Positions 9,255 through 63,556 of a stretch of DNA of 64,000 bases are shown in pieces. This DNA comes from a phage. How positions within the stretch are numbered: the stretch's first letter is position 1; every line of letters starts with the position of its first letter. The notes under the pieces were generated by a model. It was not told the origin of the DNA, searched no databases, and saw nothing but the letters and a program-made list of their open reading frames with translations. The stretch is taken from the sequence record PZ452609.1; one strand, 5' to 3'. A program made the translations under genes and the position numbers.

Positions 9255-9278
9255 GTTGACAATGTACTTGACAAGGTG
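9255..9278 (+). promoter_or_regulatory. conserved double TTGACA element (copy 1)
   Basis: gttgacaatgtacttgacaaggtg in the divergent region between the polymerase start and the plus-strand block. Confidence 0.5.
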
Positions 9279-9452
9279 TTAATCTTTGCGAAGTGGGTTT
9301 TTACTTAAAAGGTTACTTAACAGTTTAACTATACAGATACTTTAAAACTCTTAAAAGATTATTTAATAGCTTTTAAAAAGCTTTAAAGTATAACGTATAG
9401 AATACGTTAAGATAAAAGATTAAAACTTAATAGTTACTTAAAAGAGGCTTAC

Positions 9453-45530: not shown

Positions 45531-45779
45531 ATGTCAACTATCCGCGTAACTGTTAATGCTTATGGCTGCCACCAACTTGATGCAAAATTCGATATCGGTG
45601 GAACAGATAACACCTTTGACCTTATCAAAATGCTGATTCAGCAGGTGATACCAGATTATAACCCTACTGATGACTTCTGGAAAGATGCCGTAAAAGAAGC
45701 CATAAACGAGGAATCTCACTACCATTATTGGGGTGACTTGATTGTCTCTCTGTACTACAGCAAACAAGGTTACAACTAA
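45531..45779 (+). CDS. small hypothetical protein (array member 15)
   Basis: Conserved leader with GGAG RBS; followed by terminator hairpins. Confidence 0.5.
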   Translation: MSTIRVTVNAYGCHQLDAKFDIGGTDNTFDLIKMLIQQVIPDYNPTDDFWKDAVKEAINEESHYHYWGDLIVSLYYSKQGYN

Positions 45780-46478
45780 TCGACGCAGCGGGGCTAAATA
45801 GCCCCAGATACCTGAAAAGCTCCTTCTCATAGGGGCTTTTTTACGTCTATAAAGAGACTCTATACAATCCCTTTCCTTTCCTTCCTAGAATCTATCCCGT
45901 ACCTTAAAAGCAATAACTCTATAGCTTACTCTATAACCCCTTATCAAATCAACTTAAATATAAGCCCATAACCCGAAAGGGAAGGGCAACCATTTAAACG
46001 CTCTATAAAGCCCTATAACAGCCTTATCAACCTAACTTAAGCAATCATATTAACCCACTCTAAAAAGCCCTTTATAGAGCTTTCTAGAGCCTTAAAAGAA
46101 TCTTATAAGGGTGTGAGCTTTATCATCTCGTTAGCTATCTTGTGAACTACTAAAAAGGGCTTGTTAGTGTCTTAAAAGTATGTTATAGGGGCTATAAAGT
46201 TACTTTGAAGTAGCTTAAAAGTTACGTAAATGCTAGCCCCCTTAACATTTTCTTAACAATTTCTTAACAATCCCTACATAGTTATGCTTTTAAGGCACTT
46301 GTTAGCAACTTGTTAGCCCCTTGTTAAATCTCTGTTAAGACCACGTAAAAGCCTTGTAAGAACCTTTGACATAGCCTTAAAAGCTCCTGTAAAGCCCTAT
46401 AAAGAGCTATCCATACAGTTGAGGGGTAGATACTAGGAAGAGGCTTAAAAGAGCTTACAAGGAGCTATAGAGAGCTTT

Positions 46479-46599
46479 TAAAAGGTATGTTTAGAGAATC
46501 ACTAAGAGAGAAAGGGAACGATAAGAAAAGAGATAGTGACCATGTTAATAGCTTGTTAAAAAGATTAAACACTTGTTAGGAACTTGTTAATTATCTTAA
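46479..46599. repeat. direct repeat copy 1 flanking the N gap
   Basis: About 120 bp identical to 46700-46818. Confidence 0.8.
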
Positions 46600-46699
46600 N
46601 NNNNNNNNNNNNNNNNNNNNNNNNNNNNNNNNNNNNNNNNNNNNNNNNNNNNNNNNNNNNNNNNNNNNNNNNNNNNNNNNNNNNNNNNNNNNNNNNNNN
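46600..46699. other. assembly gap (100 N)
   Basis: Run of exactly 100 n. Confidence 0.95.
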
Positions 46700-46818
46700 T
46701 AAAAGGTATGTTTAGAGAATCACTAAGAGAGAAAGGGAACGATAAGAAAAGAGATAGTGACCATGTTAATAGCTTGTTAAAAAGATTAAACACTTGTTAG
46801 GAACTTGTTAATTATCTT
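46700..46818. repeat. direct repeat copy 2 flanking the N gap
   Basis: Identical to 46479-46599. Confidence 0.8.
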
Positions 46819-47652
46819 AACAAAATAACTCTTTAAAATTAACTTGTTAGCTCTTGTTAGTTATCTGTTAAGATTCTGTAAAGCCCTACCAAAGCTTGTT
46901 AGAAAACTGTTAAGTTCTTGTTAGTTCTGTTAAGAAACTGTTAAGACCTTTGAAGAGATGTTAAGAGCTTGAGAGAGTTGTTAAGATGTTGTTAAGGATA
47001 TTTTAAAATTTTGCAAAGTACTTGTAAGGGAGCTGTTAAGGGCTACCAAGCAGATATACATCTTCTACAGATATTTTTGAGTTCCTTCAAAGACCCTAAA
47101 AAATGACTTGACAGTCTTATTTTATAAAAATTTTAAAATTCTGAATAATTACTTATACAGTCTTTTAAAAATACAGGTAGAAACAGGCTTATAAGATACC
47201 TTGTTAGTACCGTGTTAGACCTTGTGAGATAAGGTCTGTAAAGATATTCCTGTTAAGTTTGTTAAAACAGTCTATATAGAGGCTTAGTAGTGCCTAGTGA
47301 ACACCTATAGAGAGTATCATAGCTGACATAGAGATTAAGGGGTGTATAGAGGCTTCTAAGAGCGTATAGAGAGATGGTTAAGGTGATTGTATAGGTTGTT
47401 AAGAAGGCTTGTTAGAAGAGTGTTTAGAGGGCTATTTAGAAGGGTTATACAGAGGGGCTATTAAGACCACTAGATAGTTACTAAGACACTATATAGTACT
47501 ATATAACTATATATAGAGAGTAAGATTAAGAAGGTTGTTAAGAAGGATAGATATTTTATTCACATATGATGGTGACCCAGAGGTTGGAACAACCGATAAA
47601 ATTTTTATAAAAATTAAAAAAAGCCCCCAATTAAGGAGGCTCTTAAGATATT

Positions 47653-48276
47653 TTAAATCAGTGTTTCCAGAACTGTTTTTAGTGATGACTTGGTTGTCTG
47701 ATAAAAATGAGTAAAGCCGTTGTTATTATCGAATACCTGCATCATGATATCATCTCCCTTGATTGGGTACACTCGGATATCATAGTGAAAACCATTAAAG
47801 ACACAAGAGCCATTACAGAATGCACTAAAGTCATCCACTGAGATATACTCTTCATGTCCTGTGATTTTTATACAGATACCTTTACTCGGTCTCTTAGGAT
47901 TAATATCTTCCATCACAGACATATTCTGTCCACCAAGAGATACCATAGTGACCACTTTACGGTTCTTCTGTCTAAAGTACATCTTAACTTTCTGCAAAGT
48001 GTCTTCATAGAATGGATAAGACCTATCTACAAAGATTCCTTCAAGTGGCTCTTTACCATTTTCAACTTCTCGGTTATGCCGTACTGCAAAGATAATTTGT
48101 TCGAACCAGTCAAGATTTTCTTCGGAGAGTGCTTCCCGAACATCCTTCCAGTCAAGGACTAGATAGTTACCTTCAACATCTTTTAAGTTATCTTTTTCCA
48201 TATCTATCACACCATTATCGTAAAACTTGATATTCTGGTACTGCGAATTTATTACTATTGTTCTTGATGAGGTCAT
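47653..48276 (-). CDS. hypothetical protein
   Basis: 207-aa ORF. Confidence 0.45.
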   Translation of the reverse strand: MTSSRTIVINSQYQNIKFYDNGVIDMEKDNLKDVEGNYLVLDWKDVREALSEENLDWFEQIIFAVRHNREVENGKEPLEGIFVDRSYPFYEDTLQKVKMYFRQKNRKVVTMVSLGGQNMSVMEDINPKRPSKGICIKITGHEEYISVDDFSAFCNGSCVFNGFHYDIRVYPIKGDDIMMQVFDNNNGFTHFYQTTKSSLKTVLETLI

Positions 48277-55640: not shown

Positions 55641-55664
55641 GTTGACAAAGTACTTGACAAGGTG
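55641..55664 (+). promoter_or_regulatory. conserved double TTGACA element (copy 2)
   Basis: gttgacaaagtacttgacaaggtg, 23 of 24 identical to copy 1, in the second divergent region. Confidence 0.5.
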
Positions 55665-55791
55665 TAGGCTTATAAATACTTAGAAGATAACTTAAAAGGT
55701 TCCTCTAAAAAGGCTATTTAAACAGATATCTTTCTGGATATCTATCTTTTATCTTAAAAGCCTTTTAAGAGGTCTTATAAGAGGCATACCA

Positions 55792-57825: not shown

Positions 57826-57905
57826 CTCCGTTTAGCTCAGTCTGGTTTAGCAGCACTTGCTTTGGGAGCAAGGGGTCGAGGGTTCAAATCCTTCAACGGA
57901 GACCA
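57826..57905 (+). tRNA. tRNA-Pro (anticodon TGG)
   Basis: Hand-folded cloverleaf, anticodon loop ttTGGga, T-loop ggttcaaatcc, 3' CCA encoded. Confidence 0.7.
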
Positions 57906-57912
57906 AATTAAT

Positions 57913-57990
57913 GTTCCAGTAGACAAAATGGTAAAGTCACCACTCTTTCAAAGTGGATATTTGAGGGTTCAAATCCCTTCTGGAACGCCA
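57913..57990 (+). tRNA. tRNA-Glu (anticodon TTC)
   Basis: Anticodon loop ctTTCaa; acceptor gttccag/ctggaac. Confidence 0.7.
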
Positions 57991-58080
57991 GTTTTGACAG
58001 AAGACCAATTACAGCAAACTTAATCTACTCATCTGAAAGTTAATCGGACAAAGAAGATATTTGGTCTGGTCATTAAGAAT

Positions 58081-58157
58081 TGCGGGTATAGAGAAAGGGC
58101 GTCTCACATGTCTCATTAGCATGGTATCGGCAGGTTCGACTCCTGCACCCGCCTCCA
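58081..58157 (+). tRNA. tRNA-Met (anticodon CAT); possible 1:72 mismatch (initiator-like) or register ambiguity
   Basis: Anticodon loop ctCATta; T-arm gcagg-ttcgact-cctgc. Confidence 0.6.
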
Positions 58158-58241
58158 AATTTACAGAAGACCGTTTACAGCAATATTTATTAAATTTTTA
58201 GCGGAAAAAATTGAAATATACGGTCTGGTAATACTAAACAT

Positions 58242-58318
58242 GGTTAGGAAGCACATAAGGTATGTGCGGTCGCCTGTTAAGCGAATGGCACAGGGTTCGA
58301 ATCCCTGACTAACCGCCA
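58242..58318 (+). tRNA. tRNA-Asn (anticodon GTT)
   Basis: Anticodon loop ctGTTaa. Confidence 0.65.
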
Positions 58319-58387
58319 AATTTAGGAGAGAAGCGATTGCTCACCGATTTGTAAGGTACAAGTCCTTAGCCTGAATAGAAATTAAAT

Positions 58388-58475
58388 GTGTCGTTATCCC
58401 GTAGATGGTAGCGGTGGGGACTGTAAATCCCTTGTCATTGAGACTCGGTAGGTTCGACTCCTACACGGCACACCA
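58388..58475 (+). tRNA. tRNA-Tyr (anticodon GTA), long variable arm
   Basis: Anticodon loop ctGTAaa; about 14-nt variable arm. Confidence 0.7.
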
Positions 58476-58480
58476 ATAAA

Positions 58481-58558
58481 GGTTATGTAGTTTAATTTGG
58501 TTAAAATACTCCCCTGTCACGGGAGATGATGAGGGTTCAAATCCCTTCGTAACCGCCA
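58481..58558 (+). tRNA. tRNA-Asp (anticodon GTC)
   Basis: Anticodon loop ctGTCac. Confidence 0.65.
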
Positions 58559-58705
58559 ATTTTGAGAGGGCTATTTAGCCCCTCCCTTAAAGGGTTCTTA
58601 CGAGTATTCTTTAAAGGAGCAGAAGACCAAATACAGCAAGTTATTTAAAATTTCAAGCCAATTTAATTTTGAAAAATTTAAAACTTGGTCTGGCTCAACA
58701 AATTT

Positions 58706-58838
58706 ACAGAAGACCGTTTACAGCAAAACTTAAACAATCTATTTCTCCGGTAAAGAAAAGGCGAAGGTTCGATTCCTTCACTCGGCAGATGTCGAGTTGG
58801 TGTAATGGTAGCACTTAAGATGATAAACAACGGTCTGG
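58706..58838 (+). ncRNA. permuted tRNA-like element, candidate Y RNA-like (YrlA-type) RNA
   Basis: Order is anticodon-like stem-loop, T-arm gaagg-ttcgatt-ccttc, acceptor 3' strand actcggc, short loop, acceptor 5' strand gtcgagt, D-arm tggtgtaatggtagcac; enclosed by an 8-bp helix agaccgtt/aacggtct. Confidence 0.45.
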
Positions 58839-58840
58839 TA

Positions 58841-58982
58841 ATTATCTTTGTAGATAAGTTATTAAGCTTACCTGTGAGTATGCGACCACAAAGGGTGAAA
58901 GGGTAAATTCTAGATTTAAACCCAAAAAGGCACATCGCTACAGACCTTAAGCAAGTCTGGGTAGCTTATCTACAAAGATAAT
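58841..58982. repeat. 19-bp perfect inverted repeat enclosing about 100 nt
   Basis: attatctttgtagataag at 58841 and cttatctacaaagataat at 58963. Confidence 0.7.
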
Positions 58983-58987
58983 TTAAT

Positions 58988-59063
58988 GGAAGTGTAGCAG
59001 AATGGTGATGCGGCAGACTTTTAATCTGACAGGCGATGGGTTCGAATCCCTCCACTTCTACCA
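58988..59063 (+). tRNA. tRNA-Lys (anticodon TTT)
   Basis: Anticodon loop ctTTTaa. Confidence 0.65.
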
Positions 59064-59141
59064 AATTCACCCTTAACTAAGAAACACCTGCGCGGCTGGA
59101 AACACCCACTCAACAGTTTCTCTAACTAGGGTACTTATTCT

Positions 59142-59218
59142 GGTTCAGTCGCAGATAAGGTAATGCAAGGGTCTCATAAGCCCTATGAATGTGGGTTCGA
59201 TTCCCATCTGAACCTCCA
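59142..59218 (+). tRNA. tRNA with CAT anticodon (Met or lysidine-type Ile2)
   Basis: Anticodon loop ctCATaa. Confidence 0.65.
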
Positions 59219-59219
59219 A

Positions 59220-59295
59220 GCTGGTATAGTTAAGAAGGTTATAACACTCCCCTGATAAGGGAACATCGGTGGTTCGATTCCACCTACCAGTACCA
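59220..59295 (+). tRNA. tRNA-Ile (anticodon GAT)
   Basis: Anticodon loop ctGATaa. Confidence 0.65.
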
Positions 59296-59310
59296 ATTTC
59301 AATAAAGTTG

Positions 59311-59339
59311 TTGACATTGAGATGTGACTACTTTATAGT
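59311..59339 (+). promoter_or_regulatory. strong sigma70-like promoter inside the tRNA cluster
   Basis: TTGACA, 17-bp spacer, TATAGT. Confidence 0.55.
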
Positions 59340-59570
59340 AACCTTAGTTTTCGTTGCGTAGCGTCTATTTTGCAAATTTAAAATAAATGCAAACGACAAT
59401 GTTTTTCTGGCAGTAGCTTGATAGGCTAAACACCAGTGAGGTCTTCCAATCCCTCATCAAAGAATTTGGCGTACTAGCCCACGGTATGATTAATAAGGTG
59501 GGCAACATTCTAAAGGGTATCCCTTATGGGGCTTGGCTTAAATGCAATGAGTACCCTTTAAAATGTTAAT

Positions 59571-59647
59571 GCACCCTTAGTTCAATTGGATAGAGCAACG
59601 GTCTTCTAAATCGTTAGTTACAGGTTCGAATCCTGTAGGGTGTGCCA
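59571..59647 (+). tRNA. tRNA-Arg (anticodon TCT)
   Basis: Anticodon loop ctTCTaa. Confidence 0.7.
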
Positions 59648-59795
59648 ATTAGTTAGCAGATTACTTAGACGACCTAAGCGGGTCTTCCTGTAGGGAGGTG
59701 GTCTGTATCTCATGTTTTCCAGAACATGTAAATAATCTGAGAAGGGGCTTTACAGTGTTGAGATAATACGGTAAGCTTCGAATTATAGTTTTAAT

Positions 59796-59866
59796 AGGGG
59801 TGAGCTATGGCAGCAATAGAGTCTCCAAAATTCTTGATTAGAGTTCGAATCTCTACACCCCTGCCA
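59796..59866 (+). tRNA. tRNA-Trp (anticodon CCA) with shortened D-arm
   Basis: Anticodon loop ctCCAaa; T-arm tagag-ttcgaat-ctcta; only about 71 nt. Confidence 0.5.
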
Positions 59867-59880
59867 GAAAAGGTGCTTGT

Positions 59881-60285
59881 ATGAAACTTTGTAGAAAATG
59901 TTCTCAAGAGAAGCCTTTAAGTTGCTTTCATAAAAGAGGGAATGGCTATCAGTCTGCTTGCAAAGATTGTAAAGCTAAGTACTCAGCAAAGAGATACAAA
60001 GAAGACCCTACTTATAAAGCAAAAAGGAAAGTTAGAGCAAAATATGACAAAAAGAGAAACAGAGAGTTCCTTAGTAGATATAAAAAGTTTTGCAAATGCA
60101 GAATATGTGGTGAATCCGAGCCAGTAGCTTTAGATTTTCATCACTTAGACCCTAAAGAGAAAGATTTTGCTCCAAGCAATCTTAAGACTTACTCTAGGGG
60201 AACTATTAAGCGTGAAGTTCGTAAGTGTGTTGTGCTTTGCTCAAACTGTCATAGGAAAGTTCATGCAGGACTGTTAAGTATTTAG
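59881..60285 (+). CDS. HNH endonuclease embedded in the tRNA cluster
   Basis: Cys-rich N-terminus plus FHHLDPKEKDF..CSNCHRKVH HNH motif. Confidence 0.7.
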   Translation: MKLCRKCSQEKPLSCFHKRGNGYQSACKDCKAKYSAKRYKEDPTYKAKRKVRAKYDKKRNREFLSRYKKFCKCRICGESEPVALDFHHLDPKEKDFAPSNLKTYSRGTIKREVRKCVVLCSNCHRKVHAGLLSI

Positions 60286-60298
60286 CAGTCTTATTAGG

Positions 60299-60388
60299 GG
60301 TAGGTAGCGGCTAATGGTAGCCAAACTGTCTTGAAAACAGTTGCCACTGTAGAGATACGGTGAGGGTTCGACTCCTTTACTTACCGCC
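60299..60388 (+). tRNA. tRNA-Ser (anticodon TGA), long variable arm
   Basis: Anticodon loop ctTGAaa; variable stem-loop gccactgtagagatacggt. Confidence 0.7.
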
Positions 60389-60642
60389 TAATAAGATTTA
60401 AAGCCAAGCTTCATTCGGATGTTGCTTTGGTATACCGCGTGTATTGTTGTACACACTGATAAAACACCTAGTAGGTGTCACGGAGAAGAGATAATATCAA
60501 GCTCTCCAAAGGTTCTAGTCACCGGATTAAACAAGACTATGCAAAGGCCTTTTTAGGTCTTTTAGAGGGCTTCTAAGGTCATTACAGCTTGTTGTGGAAC
60601 CTTGTTGCTTAGGTTCTTAGAAGTTCTCTAAAAAGGTTTAAT

Positions 60643-60721
60643 GGGAGATTGACGGCAACTTGGTAGACCTATCTCGCTTAGAACGAGATGCTTGAGGGTT
60701 CGAATCCCTTGTCTCCTACCA
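60643..60721 (+). tRNA. tRNA with TAG anticodon (Leu-type) but short variable arm
   Basis: Anticodon loop ctTAGaa; T-arm gaggg-ttcgaat-ccctt; irregular D-arm. Confidence 0.5.
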
Positions 60722-60728
60722 AATTAAT

Positions 60729-60804
60729 GCAGGTGTAGCAAAATGGTTATGCGGCTGACTCTTAATCAGTAAGACGATGGGTTCAATTCCCTCCACCTGT
60801 ACCA
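60729..60804 (+). tRNA. tRNA-Lys (anticodon CTT)
   Basis: Anticodon loop ctCTTaa. Confidence 0.65.
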
Positions 60805-60810
60805 AACAAT

Positions 60811-60886
60811 GGGGTCATAGTTTATATGGTTAAAATTCGAGTTTTGCAAACTTGGGAACTGAGTTCAATTCTCAGTGACTCCACCA
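60811..60886 (+). tRNA. tRNA-Ala (anticodon TGC)
   Basis: Anticodon loop ttTGCaa; G3:U70 wobble pair in acceptor stem. Confidence 0.75.
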
Positions 60887-60892
60887 ATTAGT

Positions 60893-60967
60893 GCATCCAT
60901 AGTTTAAACGGGAAAATTACAGTCTTCCAAACTGAGGTTGAGGGTTCGATTCCCTCTGGATGCTCCA
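60893..60967 (+). tRNA. tRNA-Gly (anticodon TCC)
   Basis: Anticodon loop ctTCCaa; discriminator U. Confidence 0.65.
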
Positions 60968-60974
60968 AATTAAT

Positions 60975-61050
60975 GCTCCTATCGTATAATTGGTTATTAC
61001 GGTTGCCTTGTAAGCAACTTATCAGGGTTCGAGTCCTTGTGGGAGCACCA
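60975..61050 (+). tRNA. tRNA-Thr (anticodon TGT)
   Basis: Anticodon loop ctTGTaa with perfect 5-bp anticodon stem. Confidence 0.7.
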
Positions 61051-61146
61051 ATTCAGAGGTCAAGTGAAAGACCGCTTTGAGTCAACTGAAGACCGTAACA
61101 AATTCCACGAAGTTGAGTTAGCGGCACAACTTCAGACCTCTTTCAT

Positions 61147-61221
61147 ACTCGCTTAGTTTATATGGTAAAACATCACCCTTACAAGATGAAGAAAAAGGTT
61201 CAAGTCCTTTAGTGAGTACCA
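61147..61221 (+). tRNA. tRNA-Val (anticodon TAC)
   Basis: Anticodon loop ctTACaa. Confidence 0.6.
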
Positions 61222-61222
61222 T

Positions 61223-61300
61223 GTTCCAGTATCCCAATTGGCAGAGGATGCAAGCTCAAACCTTGTATTAGTGACGGTTCGAATCCGTCTTGGAACACCA
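61223..61300 (+). tRNA. tRNA with CAA anticodon (Leu-type) but short variable arm
   Basis: Anticodon loop ctCAAac; T-arm gacgg-ttcgaat-ccgtc. Confidence 0.5.
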
Positions 61301-61305
61301 ATTTT

Positions 61306-61381
61306 GCAGGATTAGTTCAAATGGAAAGAGCAACAGTCTACGAAGCTGTTAATAGGGGTTCGAATCCCTTATCCTGCGCCA
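61306..61381 (+). tRNA. tRNA-Arg (anticodon ACG)
   Basis: Anticodon loop ctACGaa. Confidence 0.7.
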
Positions 61382-61398
61382 GATAAAAAGGTGATACT

Positions 61399-61641
61399 AT
61401 GCAAACATTAACAGTAGTTGAACATGAAAACTGTGAGAGTATTGAGTTTGTCAGGGTCATTGGTGTTGAACACCACATTTTCTTAAAAGTGGGATACTTA
61501 TGTGACCCCGCTAGAGTAGAAAGCTTTATACGTGATTGTTTTGGTGGTAGACATCTGAAGAGTGTTATTTTTGAGACAGTTTTACCAGAAGGTTTAGAAA
61601 CGAATAATAACATTTACCTCCTTACGAGGATTAGACAATGA
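61399..61641 (+). CDS. hypothetical protein (inside tRNA cluster)
   Basis: 80-aa ORF with AAGGTGA RBS. Confidence 0.45.
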   Translation: MQTLTVVEHENCESIEFVRVIGVEHHIFLKVGYLCDPARVESFIRDCFGGRHLKSVIFETVLPEGLETNNNIYLLTRIRQ

Positions 61642-62195
61642 GATACTTAAAGTATGCTTCATGGATTTTCTTAGCTTTGTTAGAGCCATTTGCAGCAATC
61701 TTAGCAGTTATCTTAGCACCTTTTGTAGTTCCATTCTACAGTGAGAAGAAAGGACACTTACCTTTCGGGTTCAGATGGATGGAGACTTATGACAACCCAA
61801 TTGATGGTGATGCAGGTCATATCAAACGATGGGCTAAGATTAGAAAGATTGGTAAGCTTGGTGTCTACATGCAGAGAGTTGGATGGCTCTGGAGAAACAA
61901 AGCTTATAACTTCTCTTACCATGTATTAGGAAGAGATGTAAAAGATGTTACTAAGTGGAAAGGTAATATCAACGTAAGTTCTAACCCTGAAGATAATCAG
62001 ACTGGTTATCTCCTAATGTGGAACAGTAATGCTTGGGGATTATTCGCTTTTGTGCCGTCAATCAAAATCTTTGGTAAACAATTTTACTGGAGAATTTATG
62101 TTGGGTGGAAACTTAAAAGTGTTGTCCCAGAAGAAAGAGCATTTTCAAGGGAAAGAGTTATGTTGGCATTCTTTATTCATCCACTAAGAAAGTAA
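61638..62195 (+). CDS. membrane protein (inside tRNA cluster)
   Basis: 185 aa with N-terminal TM segment. Confidence 0.45.
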   Translation: MRYLKYASWIFLALLEPFAAILAVILAPFVVPFYSEKKGHLPFGFRWMETYDNPIDGDAGHIKRWAKIRKIGKLGVYMQRVGWLWRNKAYNFSYHVLGRDVKDVTKWKGNINVSSNPEDNQTGYLLMWNSNAWGLFAFVPSIKIFGKQFYWRIYVGWKLKSVVPEERAFSRERVMLAFFIHPLRK

Positions 62196-62203
62196 AGATT
62201 TAA

Positions 62204-62279
62204 AGGGGATTAGTTTACAAGGTTAAAACCTCGGTCTTTGAAATCGAAGAAGTTGGTTCAATTCCAACATCCCCCGCCA
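62204..62279 (+). tRNA. tRNA-Gln (anticodon TTG)
   Basis: Anticodon loop ctTTGaa. Confidence 0.6.
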
Positions 62280-62281
62280 AT

Positions 62282-62360
62282 GCTCCATTACTCCAATTGG
62301 CAGAGAGGCCAGACTTAAAATCTGTGTTATGTATCGGTTCGAATCCGATATGGAGTACCA
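62282..62360 (+). tRNA. tRNA with TAA anticodon (Leu-type) but short variable arm
   Basis: Anticodon loop ctTAAaa; T-arm atcgg-ttcgaat-ccgat. Confidence 0.5.
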
Positions 62361-62365
62361 AATTT

Positions 62366-62441
62366 AGCGGTATAGCATAACTGGCAATGCAGCAGTCTCT
62401 GAAGCTGTCCTATTAAGGTTCAAATCCTTATGCCGCTGCCA
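62366..62441 (+). tRNA. tRNA-Gln (anticodon CTG)
   Basis: Anticodon loop ctCTGaa. Confidence 0.55.
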
Positions 62442-62472
62442 CTTCTAAGGATTCTTACGAGAGTCCTTAAAT

Positions 62473-62548
62473 GTGGCCTTATCATAAATGGTAATGACCC
62501 ATGCTGTGAACATGGTCTATACGGGTTCAAATCCCGTAGGTCACCCCA
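62473..62548 (+). tRNA. tRNA-His (anticodon GTG)
   Basis: Anticodon loop ctGTGaa with perfect anticodon stem. Confidence 0.7.
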
Positions 62549-62553
62549 ATTTA

Positions 62554-62630
62554 TAGTCCAAGTAGCTTATATGGTTAAAGCGCGTGTCTGAAAAACATGA
62601 GAAGAGGGTTCAAATCCCACTGGACTACCA
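62554..62630 (+). tRNA. tRNA-Phe (anticodon GAA), irregular acceptor register
   Basis: Anticodon loop ctGAAaa; D-stem gctt/aagc. Confidence 0.55.
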
Positions 62631-62646
62631 ATTTCAAAGGTGCTTA

Positions 62647-63381
62647 ATGAAAGAGATGACAGAACAAGGTAAGGAGATTTTCAATCTCTTAAAAACCGGT
62701 AAAGGGTTTTCTAACCCCCTTATTACTGGTGCAGCAGTTCTCGGTGGAACCGTAGCTGCCTCTACATCACTTGTAAGCTCTATTAGTTCTGTATCAGACC
62801 CTACAGTAAAGGATAAGATTGTTGCTGCTGGACTTACAACAGTTCTGCTTAACAGCTTTACCACGAGTCTGACAAGCACTACATCAACTACCAAAACACT
62901 AACAGATTACGGTCAAAAGTCCATTGATGAGTTTTCATCACGTATGCAGGTAGCAAAAGGTTACTCTAATGTTATGGGTGCAGCAGGTGAACAAGTTGGC
63001 TGTACACCATTTAGTGGTATTATGGGTGTTGCTACAGAGTATGGTCAAAAAGCTATTGATACGATTAACAGTGCACTAGATAGTGTTAATGGTGTGTTAA
63101 GTGACTTACAAGATGCTATTGACAAAGGTCTTGATACTATTTCTGATTTAGCTGAGCAAGCTGTTAGTAAGATTAATGAAGGTATTTCAAAAATTACAGC
63201 TTATGCAGATGAAGTTGTGCAGATGATTGAAGAAGAAGCTGCTCTTATTGCAGAGTACCTTAAAACGAATATCAATGGGTTCTTAGCAGGTATCTTACCA
63301 GACTGGTTTGATGATGCTTGTAAAACTGGTGTAATTGACACTATTGCAACACCAGAAATGAAGAACGCATTACAGAAATAA
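62647..63381 (+). CDS. hypothetical protein, Ser/Thr/Ala-rich
   Basis: Start moved to MKEMTEQ (AAAGGTG RBS) because the track start overlaps tRNA-Phe. Confidence 0.5.
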   Translation: MKEMTEQGKEIFNLLKTGKGFSNPLITGAAVLGGTVAASTSLVSSISSVSDPTVKDKIVAAGLTTVLLNSFTTSLTSTTSTTKTLTDYGQKSIDEFSSRMQVAKGYSNVMGAAGEQVGCTPFSGIMGVATEYGQKAIDTINSALDSVNGVLSDLQDAIDKGLDTISDLAEQAVSKINEGISKITAYADEVVQMIEEEAALIAEYLKTNINGFLAGILPDWFDDACKTGVIDTIATPEMKNALQK

Positions 63382-63383
63382 AT

Positions 63384-63476
63384 GGAAGATTAACCCTAAA
63401 AGGTAAGGGAGCAGTTTGCTAAACTGCCAGTAGCTGAGAAATCGGTGTACCAGTTCAAGTCTGGTATCTTCCTCCA
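63384..63476 (+). tRNA. tRNA-Ser (anticodon GCT), long variable arm
   Basis: Anticodon loop ttGCTaa; long variable stem-loop. Confidence 0.7.
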
Positions 63477-63480
63477 ATTT

Positions 63481-63556
63481 GAATCCGTGACAGAAACGGC
63501 TATGTGCCTGTCTGCAAAACAGGTTTATAAGGGTTCGAGTCCCTTCGGATTCTCCA
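63481..63556 (+). tRNA. tRNA-Cys (anticodon GCA)
   Basis: Anticodon loop ctGCAaa; discriminator U. Confidence 0.7.

Follow-up and report, generated by a model that had tools for sequence, protein, structure and literature searches.

The gene-free tract of a Felixounavirus genome as a predicted concatemer junction with phased arrays of short motifs

What does a phage genome keep in a long tract that holds no gene and is filled with copies of a few short motifs? The tract considered here occupies positions 45831-47652 of a 64,000-nucleotide stretch of phage DNA (record PZ452609.1), which we call the window. A preliminary description, made from the letters of the sequence, had reported a noncoding region of 1.9 kb saturated with degenerate motifs, and had suggested that it might be a genome end, a packaging site, an origin or a multi-site regulator-binding region. 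As that description stated, the tract lies between an array of plus-strand genes and a block of minus-strand genes; the adjoining genes end at 45779 and 47653. GC skew across the window tracks gene orientation.

The tract indeed lacks a convincing open reading frame, as its longest stop-free stretch is 49 amino acids. The only ORF that others have annotated within it (30 amino acids, 46487-46579) carries an in-frame stop in five of nine related genomes and has no ATG start in two of the nine, and a search across relatives found no conserved ORF in the tract. Each edge is formed by a Rho-independent terminator, and the two converge. The left one comprises a hairpin (45814-45841) followed by a U run, with an RNA folding energy of -28.5 kcal/mol (z = -4.1), and the Mijalis record has an annotated terminator at the corresponding position. 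The right one, found by a terminator scan, has a 10-bp stem with five GC pairs and then a T run. A search of the tract against Rfam gave no match at the gathering score of any family; the sole match, over the right-hand terminator, is a sub-threshold Phe_leader (27.9 bits versus 55, E = 0.068). Seven flanking proteins matched no known family or function in PHROGs and Pfam. For the syntenic neighbour of 82 amino acids, an AlphaFold2 model (pLDDT 81) had no significant Foldseek match in the PDB, and this search therefore yielded no candidate for a DNA-binding protein. The window does not include the terminase genes.

Part of the apparent length of the tract is artificial. A run of 100 N (46600-46699) is followed, at 46700-46820, by an exact copy of the preceding 121 bp. 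This 121-bp segment is single-copy in TP1, the closest genome, which is contiguous, and therefore 221 bp of the tract represent a scaffolding artefact. Thus, the gene-free tract itself stands, and the 1.9 kb originally given for it shrinks to about 1.6 kb. In the homologous tract of a sister assembly, TP15, there are four 100-N runs and a mis-join.

By blastn, the window belongs to Felixounavirus (Felix O1-like phages), and a T5-like injection-stop region, which was our first guess, was dropped once this result was obtained. More than 230 Felixounavirus records match the tract at 80-100% identity, and nearly all of them leave it unannotated. When it is compared by blastn with 50,697 phage records, matches come almost only from Ounavirinae, besides one record labelled Staphylococcus; none come from Autographiviridae.

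Genome ends that were determined independently in close relatives map inside this tract, at sequences conserved in the window. The Ro111lw (vB_EcoM-Ro111lw) record has an exact 613-bp terminal repeat, which was called by PhageTerm (PMC6454146). The E9 record has an exact 580-bp terminal repeat, and PhageTerm indicated direct terminal repeats (DTRs) for a phage set that includes E9 (PMC11737134). Both repeats are homologous to the DTR segment of the window. Both records open with GCCCCCTTAACA, and both DTRs, like the ECP2307 record, close at ...GGGCTACC. In the window, these two repeats and the ECP2307 end correspond to 46236 and 47047, where the boundaries TA/GCCCCCTTAACA and GGGCTACC/AAGCAGATATACA fall (the slash marks the cut). 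Each boundary word is unique in the window and identical to the word of relatives with determined termini. Moreover, among 60 sampled records, about 10 have an end at the left cut or close to it, and the homologous segment is also an exact end repeat, of 439 bp, in the record of the Kolesnikvirus phage SPARTY.

A further relative, UAB_Phi87, has a DTR that was measured as 608 bp by Bal31 digestion and run-off sequencing (PMC4837284); from the conserved words, 614 bp is expected. End fragments calculated from the flanking SpeI sites are 4431 and 2751 bp, compared with reported sizes of 4322 and 2819 bp; this is agreement to within 68-109 bp, and the figures in the paper are not self-consistent with a repeat of 608 bp. 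The large terminase subunit of the genus clusters with DTR-type terminases (PMC4837284). The ends of the UAB_Phi87 record (JN225449.1) were also considered as physical ends, and were rejected: they predict a SpeI end fragment of 1134 bp, not of 2819 or 4322 bp. That record has an exact end overlap of 542 bp located in the tRNA region, and its ends are an arbitrary opening point with an assembly overlap.

The DTR boundaries of relatives are thus located within the tract, which identifies it, by homology, as the predicted concatemer junction of a Felixounavirus, with a left flank, the DTR and a right flank between convergent terminators (Table 1). Homology to relatives with determined termini makes it very probable that the tract contains the DTR and the genome ends of this phage, one of the functions first suggested for it. 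The data contradict both conditions named at the outset as refuting, termini located elsewhere and a motif density no higher than base composition would give. The genome in the window would then start with GCCCCCTTAACA and end with GGGCTACC. The assembly collapsed the DTR to one copy and broke within it, and such a repeat would explain the assembly breaks and N runs seen here in phages that are widely used for typing and therapy. The two conserved words also allow hundreds of Felixounavirus records, now opened arbitrarily, to be oriented and annotated.

Table 1. Components of the tract, in window coordinates; a slash within a word marks the predicted cut
Feature	Position	Strand	Remarks
Rho-independent terminator, left edge of tract	45814..45843	+	Closes upstream plus-strand gene block
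Left flank array, outside terminal repeat	45847..46235	+	Mostly octamers of CTTAAAAG, CTATAAAG and CTAAAAAG type, spacing about 11 bp
Left cut-site word GTTACGTAAATGCTA/GCCCCCTTAACA	46221..46247	+	Predicted left virion-DNA end, base 46236
Predicted DTR, one copy in collapsed assembly	46236..47047	+	591 bp without the artefact; bounded by both cut-site words
Three inverted TGTTAAG units (CTTAACA on plus strand), 11-bp spacing	46241..46269	-	Extreme left end of DTR
Left array within DTR	46274..46472	+	CTTGTTAG, CTGTTAAG, CTTAAAAG, CTGTAAAG and CTATAAAG units, all in plus orientation
Purine-rich, repeat-poor DTR centre	46473..46599, resuming 46821-46842	.	107-bp gap between motifs
Scaffolding artefact	46600..46820	.	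100 N and exact second copy of 46479-46599
Right array within DTR	46843..47040	+	Densest run of CTTGTTAG and CTGTTAAG, spacing 10-12 bp
Right cut-site word GGGCTACC/AAGCAGATATACATC	47040..47062	+	Predicted right virion-DNA end, base 47047
Most AT-rich block of tract, 15-20% G+C	47092..47180	.	Lowest-GC 60-bp windows; 45-130 bp outside right cut
Right flank array, outside DTR	47188..47560	+	More degenerate CTTGTTAG, CTGTTAAG, CTGTAAAG and TATAGAG units
Rho-independent terminator, right edge of tract	47619..47644	-	Closes minus-strand gene block

The motifs that fill the tract are octamers of the form CT-N4-AG with the cores TGTTAAG, TTGTTAG and TAAAAG. About 60 such units, roughly 11 bp apart, run through the terminal repeat and both flanks, and both cut sites are embedded in units spaced 10-12 bp. 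The saturation with short motifs reported at the outset is borne out, in that the motifs named there are strongly enriched and strand-biased, at a density that exceeds the expectation from base composition. Octamers matching CTNNNNAG occur 62 times in 1601 bp, or 38.7 per kb compared with 9.8 per kb elsewhere, about a fourfold excess. CTTGTTAG is present in 10 copies (0.05 expected), CTGTTAAG in 7 (0.18 expected) and CTTAAAAG in 6 (0.35 expected). YTGTTAG is found ten times on the plus strand and never on the minus strand of the tract, and unit polarity is strict, the only exception being three units that are inverted at the left DTR end.

A periodicity analysis, as had been proposed, reveals a phased 11-bp array that had escaped the first reading. 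Successive CTNNNNAG copies are 10-12 bp apart in 28 cases, whereas 1000 Markov simulations averaged 0.26 such cases and never exceeded 3. A motif-free test based on 5-mer self-matches peaks at a lag of 11, with 52 matches versus 3-9 in coding controls. The Fourier peak of motif starts over the whole tract lies within the null range and not above the null maximum, and the claim of periodicity rests on the local spacing and lag tests. Long-range phase coherence is modest, which makes several local arrays more likely than one rigid superhelix.

The local arrays differ in detail. The left flank array contains 17 CTNNNNAG copies with 8 spacings of 10-12 bp and a best period of 11.1, and spacings in the left DTR array are 10-13 or 21-23 bp. 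The right flank array also has 17 CTNNNNAG copies, with TATAGAG present five times. TP1 lacks exactly one 11-bp unit of the inverted block, at which the garuso record has an annotated repeat_region. TGTTAAGGG occurs 3-5 bp inside each cut, in opposite orientations. Tentatively, the two cut sites appear symmetric, with TGTTAAGGG common to the inside of the cut and AGCA to the outside.

Cut-site words and arrays are conserved well beyond the genus. The words are near-invariant in Felixounavirus, Suspvirus and Mooglevirus and recognisable in Kolesnikvirus: the left word is kept in nine genomes of the first three genera and appears in Kolesnikvirus as TA/GCCACTTTTACA, while the right word forms a block of 24 invariant columns across three genera, with AAGCAGATATACA also retained in SPARTY and BoyaciRG1. 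The 11-bp array is found in all four genera. Conservation is 0.86-0.94 at motif positions versus 0.75-0.83 in spacers, and 0.69-0.85 versus 0.52-0.66 in distant genera. Suspvirus and Mooglevirus each keep 38 of the 62 units as CTNNNNAG at aligned positions. The right array within the DTR is the only stretch that still matches the Kolesnikvirus phages of Erwinia and Hafnia by blastn, and the left flank in Kolesnikvirus contains a different unit (TTCTAAR) with the same period. The commonest indels in the tract are of 11 and 22 bp, and the DTR lengths predicted among relatives (569, 570, 580, 591 and 613/614 bp) differ in steps of about 11 bp. We consider it likely that the arrays are under selection.

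It is possible to sketch how such a junction might work. From the homology to relatives with determined termini, packaged genomes are very probably cut at two fixed, conserved sites, before 46236 and after 47047, so that the intervening 591 bp would form each end of the virion DNA, as a short DTR without permutation. The octamers may be sites on the same face of the helix that bend DNA, bind many copies of a phage packaging protein, or both; candidates for this protein are the small terminase subunit and an accessory factor. DNA and protein would thereby form a wrapped nucleoprotein platform, which would mark the junction and direct the terminase nuclease to both cut sites. Duplication of the repeat would follow, as in T7, through staggered nicks and strand-displacement synthesis. 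That the arrays act in packaging or terminase recognition has about an even chance in our estimation, and the reading as a whole, a concatemer junction with phased arrays that guide the terminase, is the best explanation and somewhat better than even. A bolder version, which we regard as rather unlikely, is that the approximately 60 phased units bind a putative dedicated Ounavirinae protein that coats about 1.6 kb into a wrapped filament, an "end complex" that defines both terminase cuts and has a second role. If so, this role might be in origin firing, end protection or control of DNA ejection, and the packaging signal would far exceed in size all pac and cos sites characterised so far.

Other explanations account for some of these observations. 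Perhaps the tract is a replication origin, in which the phased repeats are initiator iterons, the AT-rich block is an unwinding element, and the terminal repeat merely overlaps. Dense direct repeats do adjoin the block of 15-20% G+C at 47092-47180, a consensus DnaA box is present at 47556, and the tract carries no genes and is conserved throughout the subfamily. However, the units are 8-bp cores at 11-bp spacing rather than the usual iterons of 17-22 bp, and some 60 copies over 1.6 kb are far above known origins. The DnaA box is the only one in the tract, searches there found neither IHF nor Chi sites, and a search near the tract for an initiator gene or a DnaA/IHF cluster revealed none that is recognisable. 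The layout of the arrays follows the two cut sites, the inverted units sit precisely at the left end, and the GC skew simply follows the genes. Repeats and a low-GC block are present in the tract, and the unit size and copy number are atypical of iteron origins; we judge an origin improbable. A functionless minisatellite, in which an 11-bp unit expanded by slippage in a gene desert tolerated for its cut sites, is given the same low probability. It would fit the degeneracy of the units and the 11- and 22-bp steps seen in indels, as well as the 11-bp steps in DTR length. Yet the array persists at 75-80% identity, and also in a genus with little sequence that can still be aligned; spacers are less conserved than motif positions; and the units shared with Suspvirus and Mooglevirus (38 of 62 each), the strict polarity outside the three inverted units and the change of unit at constant period in Kolesnikvirus also speak against this reading. 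Furthermore, phage genomes rarely retain a useless 1.6 kb.

A multi-site array for a transcriptional regulator or silencer, which might also act at the divergent promoter regions 9300-9450 and 55680-55790, is less probable still. The motif link to those regions that was noted initially is real, in that CTTAAAAG occurs about three times in each and no further 500-bp bin outside the tract reaches four motifs of the family, and it is weak, since bins of the tract contain 18-23. Moreover, some copies of family motifs there overlap ribosome-binding sites, including CTTAAAAG copies that are part of such sites, and neither the dominant units TGTTAAG and TTGTTAG nor the 11-bp phasing is present in these regions. 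Convergent terminators enclose the tract, no gene starts within it, and a promoter scan of the tract found no excess of promoter-like sites (10 versus 7.6 +/- 2.8), so the proposed regulator function is unlikely. The possibility that assembly of a repeat-rich region with double coverage produced the entire feature as an artefact is suggested by the N run and 121-bp duplicate, and by the four N runs and mis-join of TP15. However, the tract is free of gaps in more than 230 independently assembled genomes, and an artefact accounts for only 221 bp; outside 46600-46820 this explanation is refuted, and it has almost no weight. The concatemer junction with phased arrays remains the reading that we prefer.

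The closest known systems are the DTRs of other Felix O1-like phages. The tract in the window is orthologous to those of UAB_Phi87 and Ro111lw, with the same locus, sequence (86-94% identity) and boundary words. The predicted DTR is 591 bp in the window, in a collapsed and gapped assembly, compared with 608 bp in UAB_Phi87 and 613 bp in Ro111lw. Genome ends are therefore already published for close relatives. The papers on these two phages give the existence and length of the repeat, but not its flanks, the cut-site words or the phased array. Within the literature that was searched, there is no description of the Ounavirinae array, nor of the function of the T7 repeats; the array seems to be undescribed so far, and it resembles the arrays at T7 ends.

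Type II plasmid centromeres, such as parC of R1 and of pSK41, consist of tandem iterons of 10-11 bp that ParR coats as a helical filament. The window shares with parC tandem units of about 11 bp, on which bound proteins would lie on a slowly rotating face of the helix. However, no parR- or parM-like genes were found among the flanking proteins, the array is far longer and more degenerate, and a lytic phage, unlike these plasmids, has no need for partition.

In SPP1 (pacL and pacR) and lambda (cosB, with R sites and IHF), short boxes in helical phase are bound by the small terminase subunit, which wraps or bends the DNA. The window has the same layout of a predicted nuclease cut flanked by short repeats about one helical turn apart, which is a likeness in DNA layout, as no small terminase subunit was identified in the window. 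SPP1 and lambda have only a few boxes, within 100-250 bp, and are cut in one region, whereas the window has tens of units and two predicted cuts 591 bp apart, and lambda cosB uses IHF, for which the tract has no site.

The T7 junction is also similar. It has a short, exact, non-permuted DTR (160 bp in T7) in a gene-poor junction, and a short A/T-rich motif ending in AAG that occurs in one orientation inside and beside the repeat. The T7 heptamers CCTAAAG, CATAAAG and CTTAAAG are found four times in the terminal repeat, 12 times in the 250 bp rightward of it and five times in the right arm; these arrays were reportedly named SRL and SRR by Dunn and Studier in 1983. SP6 has CCTTAGT units at 12 bp beside its DTR, with a lag peak of 12, and the lag peak in T7 is 13, compared with 11 in the window. 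The same test for short-motif arrays was positive for T7 and SP6 and negative for N4. The window likewise contains a motif of 7-8 bp in many copies (62 CTNNNNAG units) and one orientation, inside and beside the repeat, and its predicted ends appear fixed, sequence-defined and non-permuted, as in the T7-type class of Casjens and Gilcrease.

There are also differences from T7. The window does not have the 12-13 bp spacing of T7 and SP6 with the main array outside the repeat; its densest arrays lie inside. T7 has about 20 copies over about 0.6 kb, compared with about 60 over 1.6 kb, and its region contains promoters A0, phiOL and A1-A3, whereas none are evident in the tract. T7, a podovirus, and the window phage, a myovirus, belong to unrelated families without sequence homology here, and blastn against the 50,697 phage records gave no sign of common descent with the T7 or SP6 junctions.

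Short-motif arrays at DTRs are not limited to T7-like podoviruses, and are larger and helically phased in an unrelated myovirus subfamily, which implies that such arrays are a more general, still unexplained feature of DTR packaging. An "end complex", if one does form, might likewise account for the T7 end repeats, which have been a puzzle for 40 years. Bas63 and other Felix O1-like phages are open to genetic manipulation, and could serve to probe the role of the array.

The gene-free tract of this Felixounavirus genome (45831-47652) is bordered by a plus-strand gene ending at 45779 and a minus-strand gene ending at 47653, and its G+C content drops to 30-34%. The tract includes a run of Ns at 46600-46699, on the other side of which the 121 bp at 46479-46599 recur exactly at 46700-46820. 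Because the two tract halves overlap by exactly those 121 bp in Escherichia typing phage 1 (TP1), the contiguous closest genome, both the N run and the repeated copy after it are a scaffolding artefact. Judged from this alignment, the artefact comprises 221 bp (46600-46820) and the true tract length is 1601 bp; the preliminary description of a motif-rich 1.9-kb noncoding tract had the motif saturation right and the length wrong. The 100-N spacer and the exact duplicate sit within the direct terminal repeat (DTR), so the window assembly is a scaffold interrupted within the DTR. The sister assembly, TP15 (KP869113), has four 100-N runs in the equivalent region. Its right flank directly adjoins tRNA-Val/Leu/Arg, a join that is probably a mis-scaffold.

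More than 230 Felixounavirus records share 80-100% identity with the tract, almost all of them without annotation there, and several of these records begin inside it. The record of phage Ro111lw begins and ends with an exact 613-bp repeat, called as a DTR by its authors with PhageTerm (PMC6454146). An exact 580-bp repeat is present in E9, one of a group of phages for which DTRs were indicated by PhageTerm (PMC11737134). When placed on the window, the two repeats and the end of the ECP2307 record fall at identical positions, 46236 (GCCCCCTTAACA...) and 47047 (...GGGCTACC). Comparison with the termini of related phages thus places genome ends inside the tract, and genome end or packaging is the correct one among the preliminary suggestions. 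For UAB_Phi87, a 608-bp DTR was reported from Bal31 digestion and run-off sequencing (PMC4837284), and 614 bp separate the same two cut words in its genome. From the SpeI sites on either side of its copy of the tract, end fragments of 4431 and 2751 bp are expected, compared with the reported 4322 and 2819 bp. If the ends of the deposited record were physical ends, a 1134-bp SpeI fragment would be predicted instead; those ends are arbitrary. In that record (JN225449.1, 87,603 bp), the two ends overlap exactly over 542 bp within the tRNA region; this overlap differs from the published 608-bp DTR, and the two versions imply an identical unique length of 87,061 bp. Short terminal repeats had already been inferred for Felix O1 from its PFGE size (PMC3185647).

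Homology to these relatives shows an arrangement in which terminase would cut at two fixed sites, so that each packaged genome would start and end with a 591-bp segment, and concatemers would carry one copy of this segment per junction.

Features of the tract in plus-strand order, opened and closed by the two terminators
Feature	Position	Strand	Remarks
Rho-independent terminator, hairpin	45814-45841	+	faces tract; -28.5 kcal/mol, z = -4.1
Left flank array	45847-46235		CTTAAAAG and CTATAAAG types
Left cut	46236
Three TGTTAAG units, inverted	46241-46269
Direct array	46274-46472
Repeat-poor, purine-rich centre	46473-46599 and 46821-46842
Densest array	46843-47040		CTTGTTAG/CTGTTAAG
Right cut	after 47047
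Conserved AAGCAGATATACATC	directly beyond right cut
15-20% G+C block	47092-47180
Right flank array	47188-47560		degenerate
Single consensus DnaA box	47556		TTATTCACA; right flank, ~60 bp from terminator of minus-strand block
Rho-independent terminator	47619-47644	-	faces tract

Motifs were counted on the de-duplicated tract, with expectations derived from the remainder of the window. CTTGTTAG is present in 10 copies (0.05 expected), CTGTTAAG in 7 (0.18) and CTTAAAAG in 6 (0.35), nearly all on the plus strand. The tract motifs share the frame CT-N4-AG, which occurs 62 times (38.7 per kb, compared with 9.8 per kb elsewhere in the window). Their spacing is a feature that the preliminary description overlooked: 28 successive spacings are 10-12 bp, where Markov simulations average 0.26 and never exceed 3, and most of the remainder are 21-23 bp. 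In a motif-free test, 5-mer self-matches peak at a lag of 11 (52 matches, where coding controls give 3-9) and show harmonics at 20-22 and 31-33. The phased units may set recognition elements on a single, slowly rotating helix face, an arrangement found at sites where many copies of a protein assemble cooperatively to wrap the DNA or bend it. They could form a nucleoprotein platform marking the junction and holding the nuclease in position, and the 591-bp repeat would then be duplicated in the manner of T7.

A gene-free gap of 1.45-1.75 kb lies between the same convergent genes in all four sampled Ounavirinae genera, and the 11-bp array is found in every one. Felixounavirus, Suspvirus and Mooglevirus show almost no variation in the words at the left cut (GTTACGTAAATGCTA|GCCCCCTTAACA) and the right cut (GGGCTACC|AAGCAGATATACATC), the latter word lying within 24 identical columns. 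In Kolesnikvirus, the majority of the tract is no longer alignable; even so, an exact repeat of 439 bp is found at the ends of SPARTY, delimited by TA|GCCACTTTTACA and ...CCACT|AAGCAGATATACA, and the same words occur 439 bp apart in BoyaciRG1. The left flank in this genus uses another unit, TTCTAAR, at an unchanged period, and the repeat and right flank retain TGTTAAGA. Among longer indels, 11 and 22 bp are commonest; predicted DTR lengths (569, 570, 580, 591 and 613/614 bp) mostly differ by 11 or 22 bp, and TP1 lacks a single 11-bp unit (CTTAACATTTT), no more and no less, where the DTR begins on the left (window 46236-46270). In each of the four genera, the gene directly upstream of the tract (phrog_4559; 45531-45779, plus strand) encodes an 82-amino-acid protein, for which a confident model (pLDDT 81) with a beta-alpha-alpha-beta fold gave no significant match in the PDB.

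That the array is a functionless minisatellite is unlikely, as the conservation pattern speaks against it. Motif positions are more conserved than spacers both overall (0.86-0.94 versus 0.75-0.83) and in distant genera (0.69-0.85 versus 0.52-0.66). A replication origin, which the AT-rich block suggests, is similarly improbable, because there is only one DnaA box, and an IHF site and an initiator gene were not found. The proposal of a regulator-binding array is very improbable, given that convergent terminators bound the tract and promoter-like sites within it show no excess. As the preliminary description held, the tract has no convincing ORF: none is conserved, and a 30-amino-acid ORF annotated by one depositor has, among nine genomes compared, an in-frame stop in five and no ATG start in two. 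An Rfam search of the tract returned no families at gathering score, and the sole match was a sub-threshold Phe_leader over the right-hand terminator.

Elsewhere in the window, the reported recurrence of motifs in the two divergent promoter regions (9268-9445 and 55654-55770) holds to the extent that each has about three CTTAAAAG copies, but some of these extend into ribosome-binding sites (TAAAAGAGG...ATG). Both regions also contain the word TTGACAAGGTGT, and a common regulatory element is possible. GATC is absent from window positions 1-64000 (~230 expected), as are many 6-bp palindromes, including CTGCAG (22.7 expected), ATGCAT (14.7), CAGCTG (11.4) and CCATGG (9.4); this avoidance of restriction and Dam sites far exceeds what low G+C content would explain. 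A cluster of 27 plus-strand tRNA genes with short gaps occupies 57826-63556.

The DTR of Felixounavirus is already published. No description of the array or the cut-site words was found in the literature searched, and the conserved cut sites, flanks and phased array seem not to have been described before; they are details analogous to those of T7. When T7, SP6 and N4 were put through the same tests as the tract, N4 showed no such units. In T7, CCTAAAG-type heptamers accompany a 160-bp repeat: four lie within it, 12 in the next 250 bp on its right side and five in the right arm, and the lag peak is at 13 bp. The units of SP6, CCTTAGT, are spaced at 12 bp. In contrast, the Ounavirinae tract has a period of 11 bp and comprises about 60 units, its arrays extend through the terminal repeat, and it has no sequence homology to T7, SP6 or N4. 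Because the T7 and SP6 arrays are positive in the same tests, the Ounavirinae tract is, by analogy, a further and much larger example of this kind of array.
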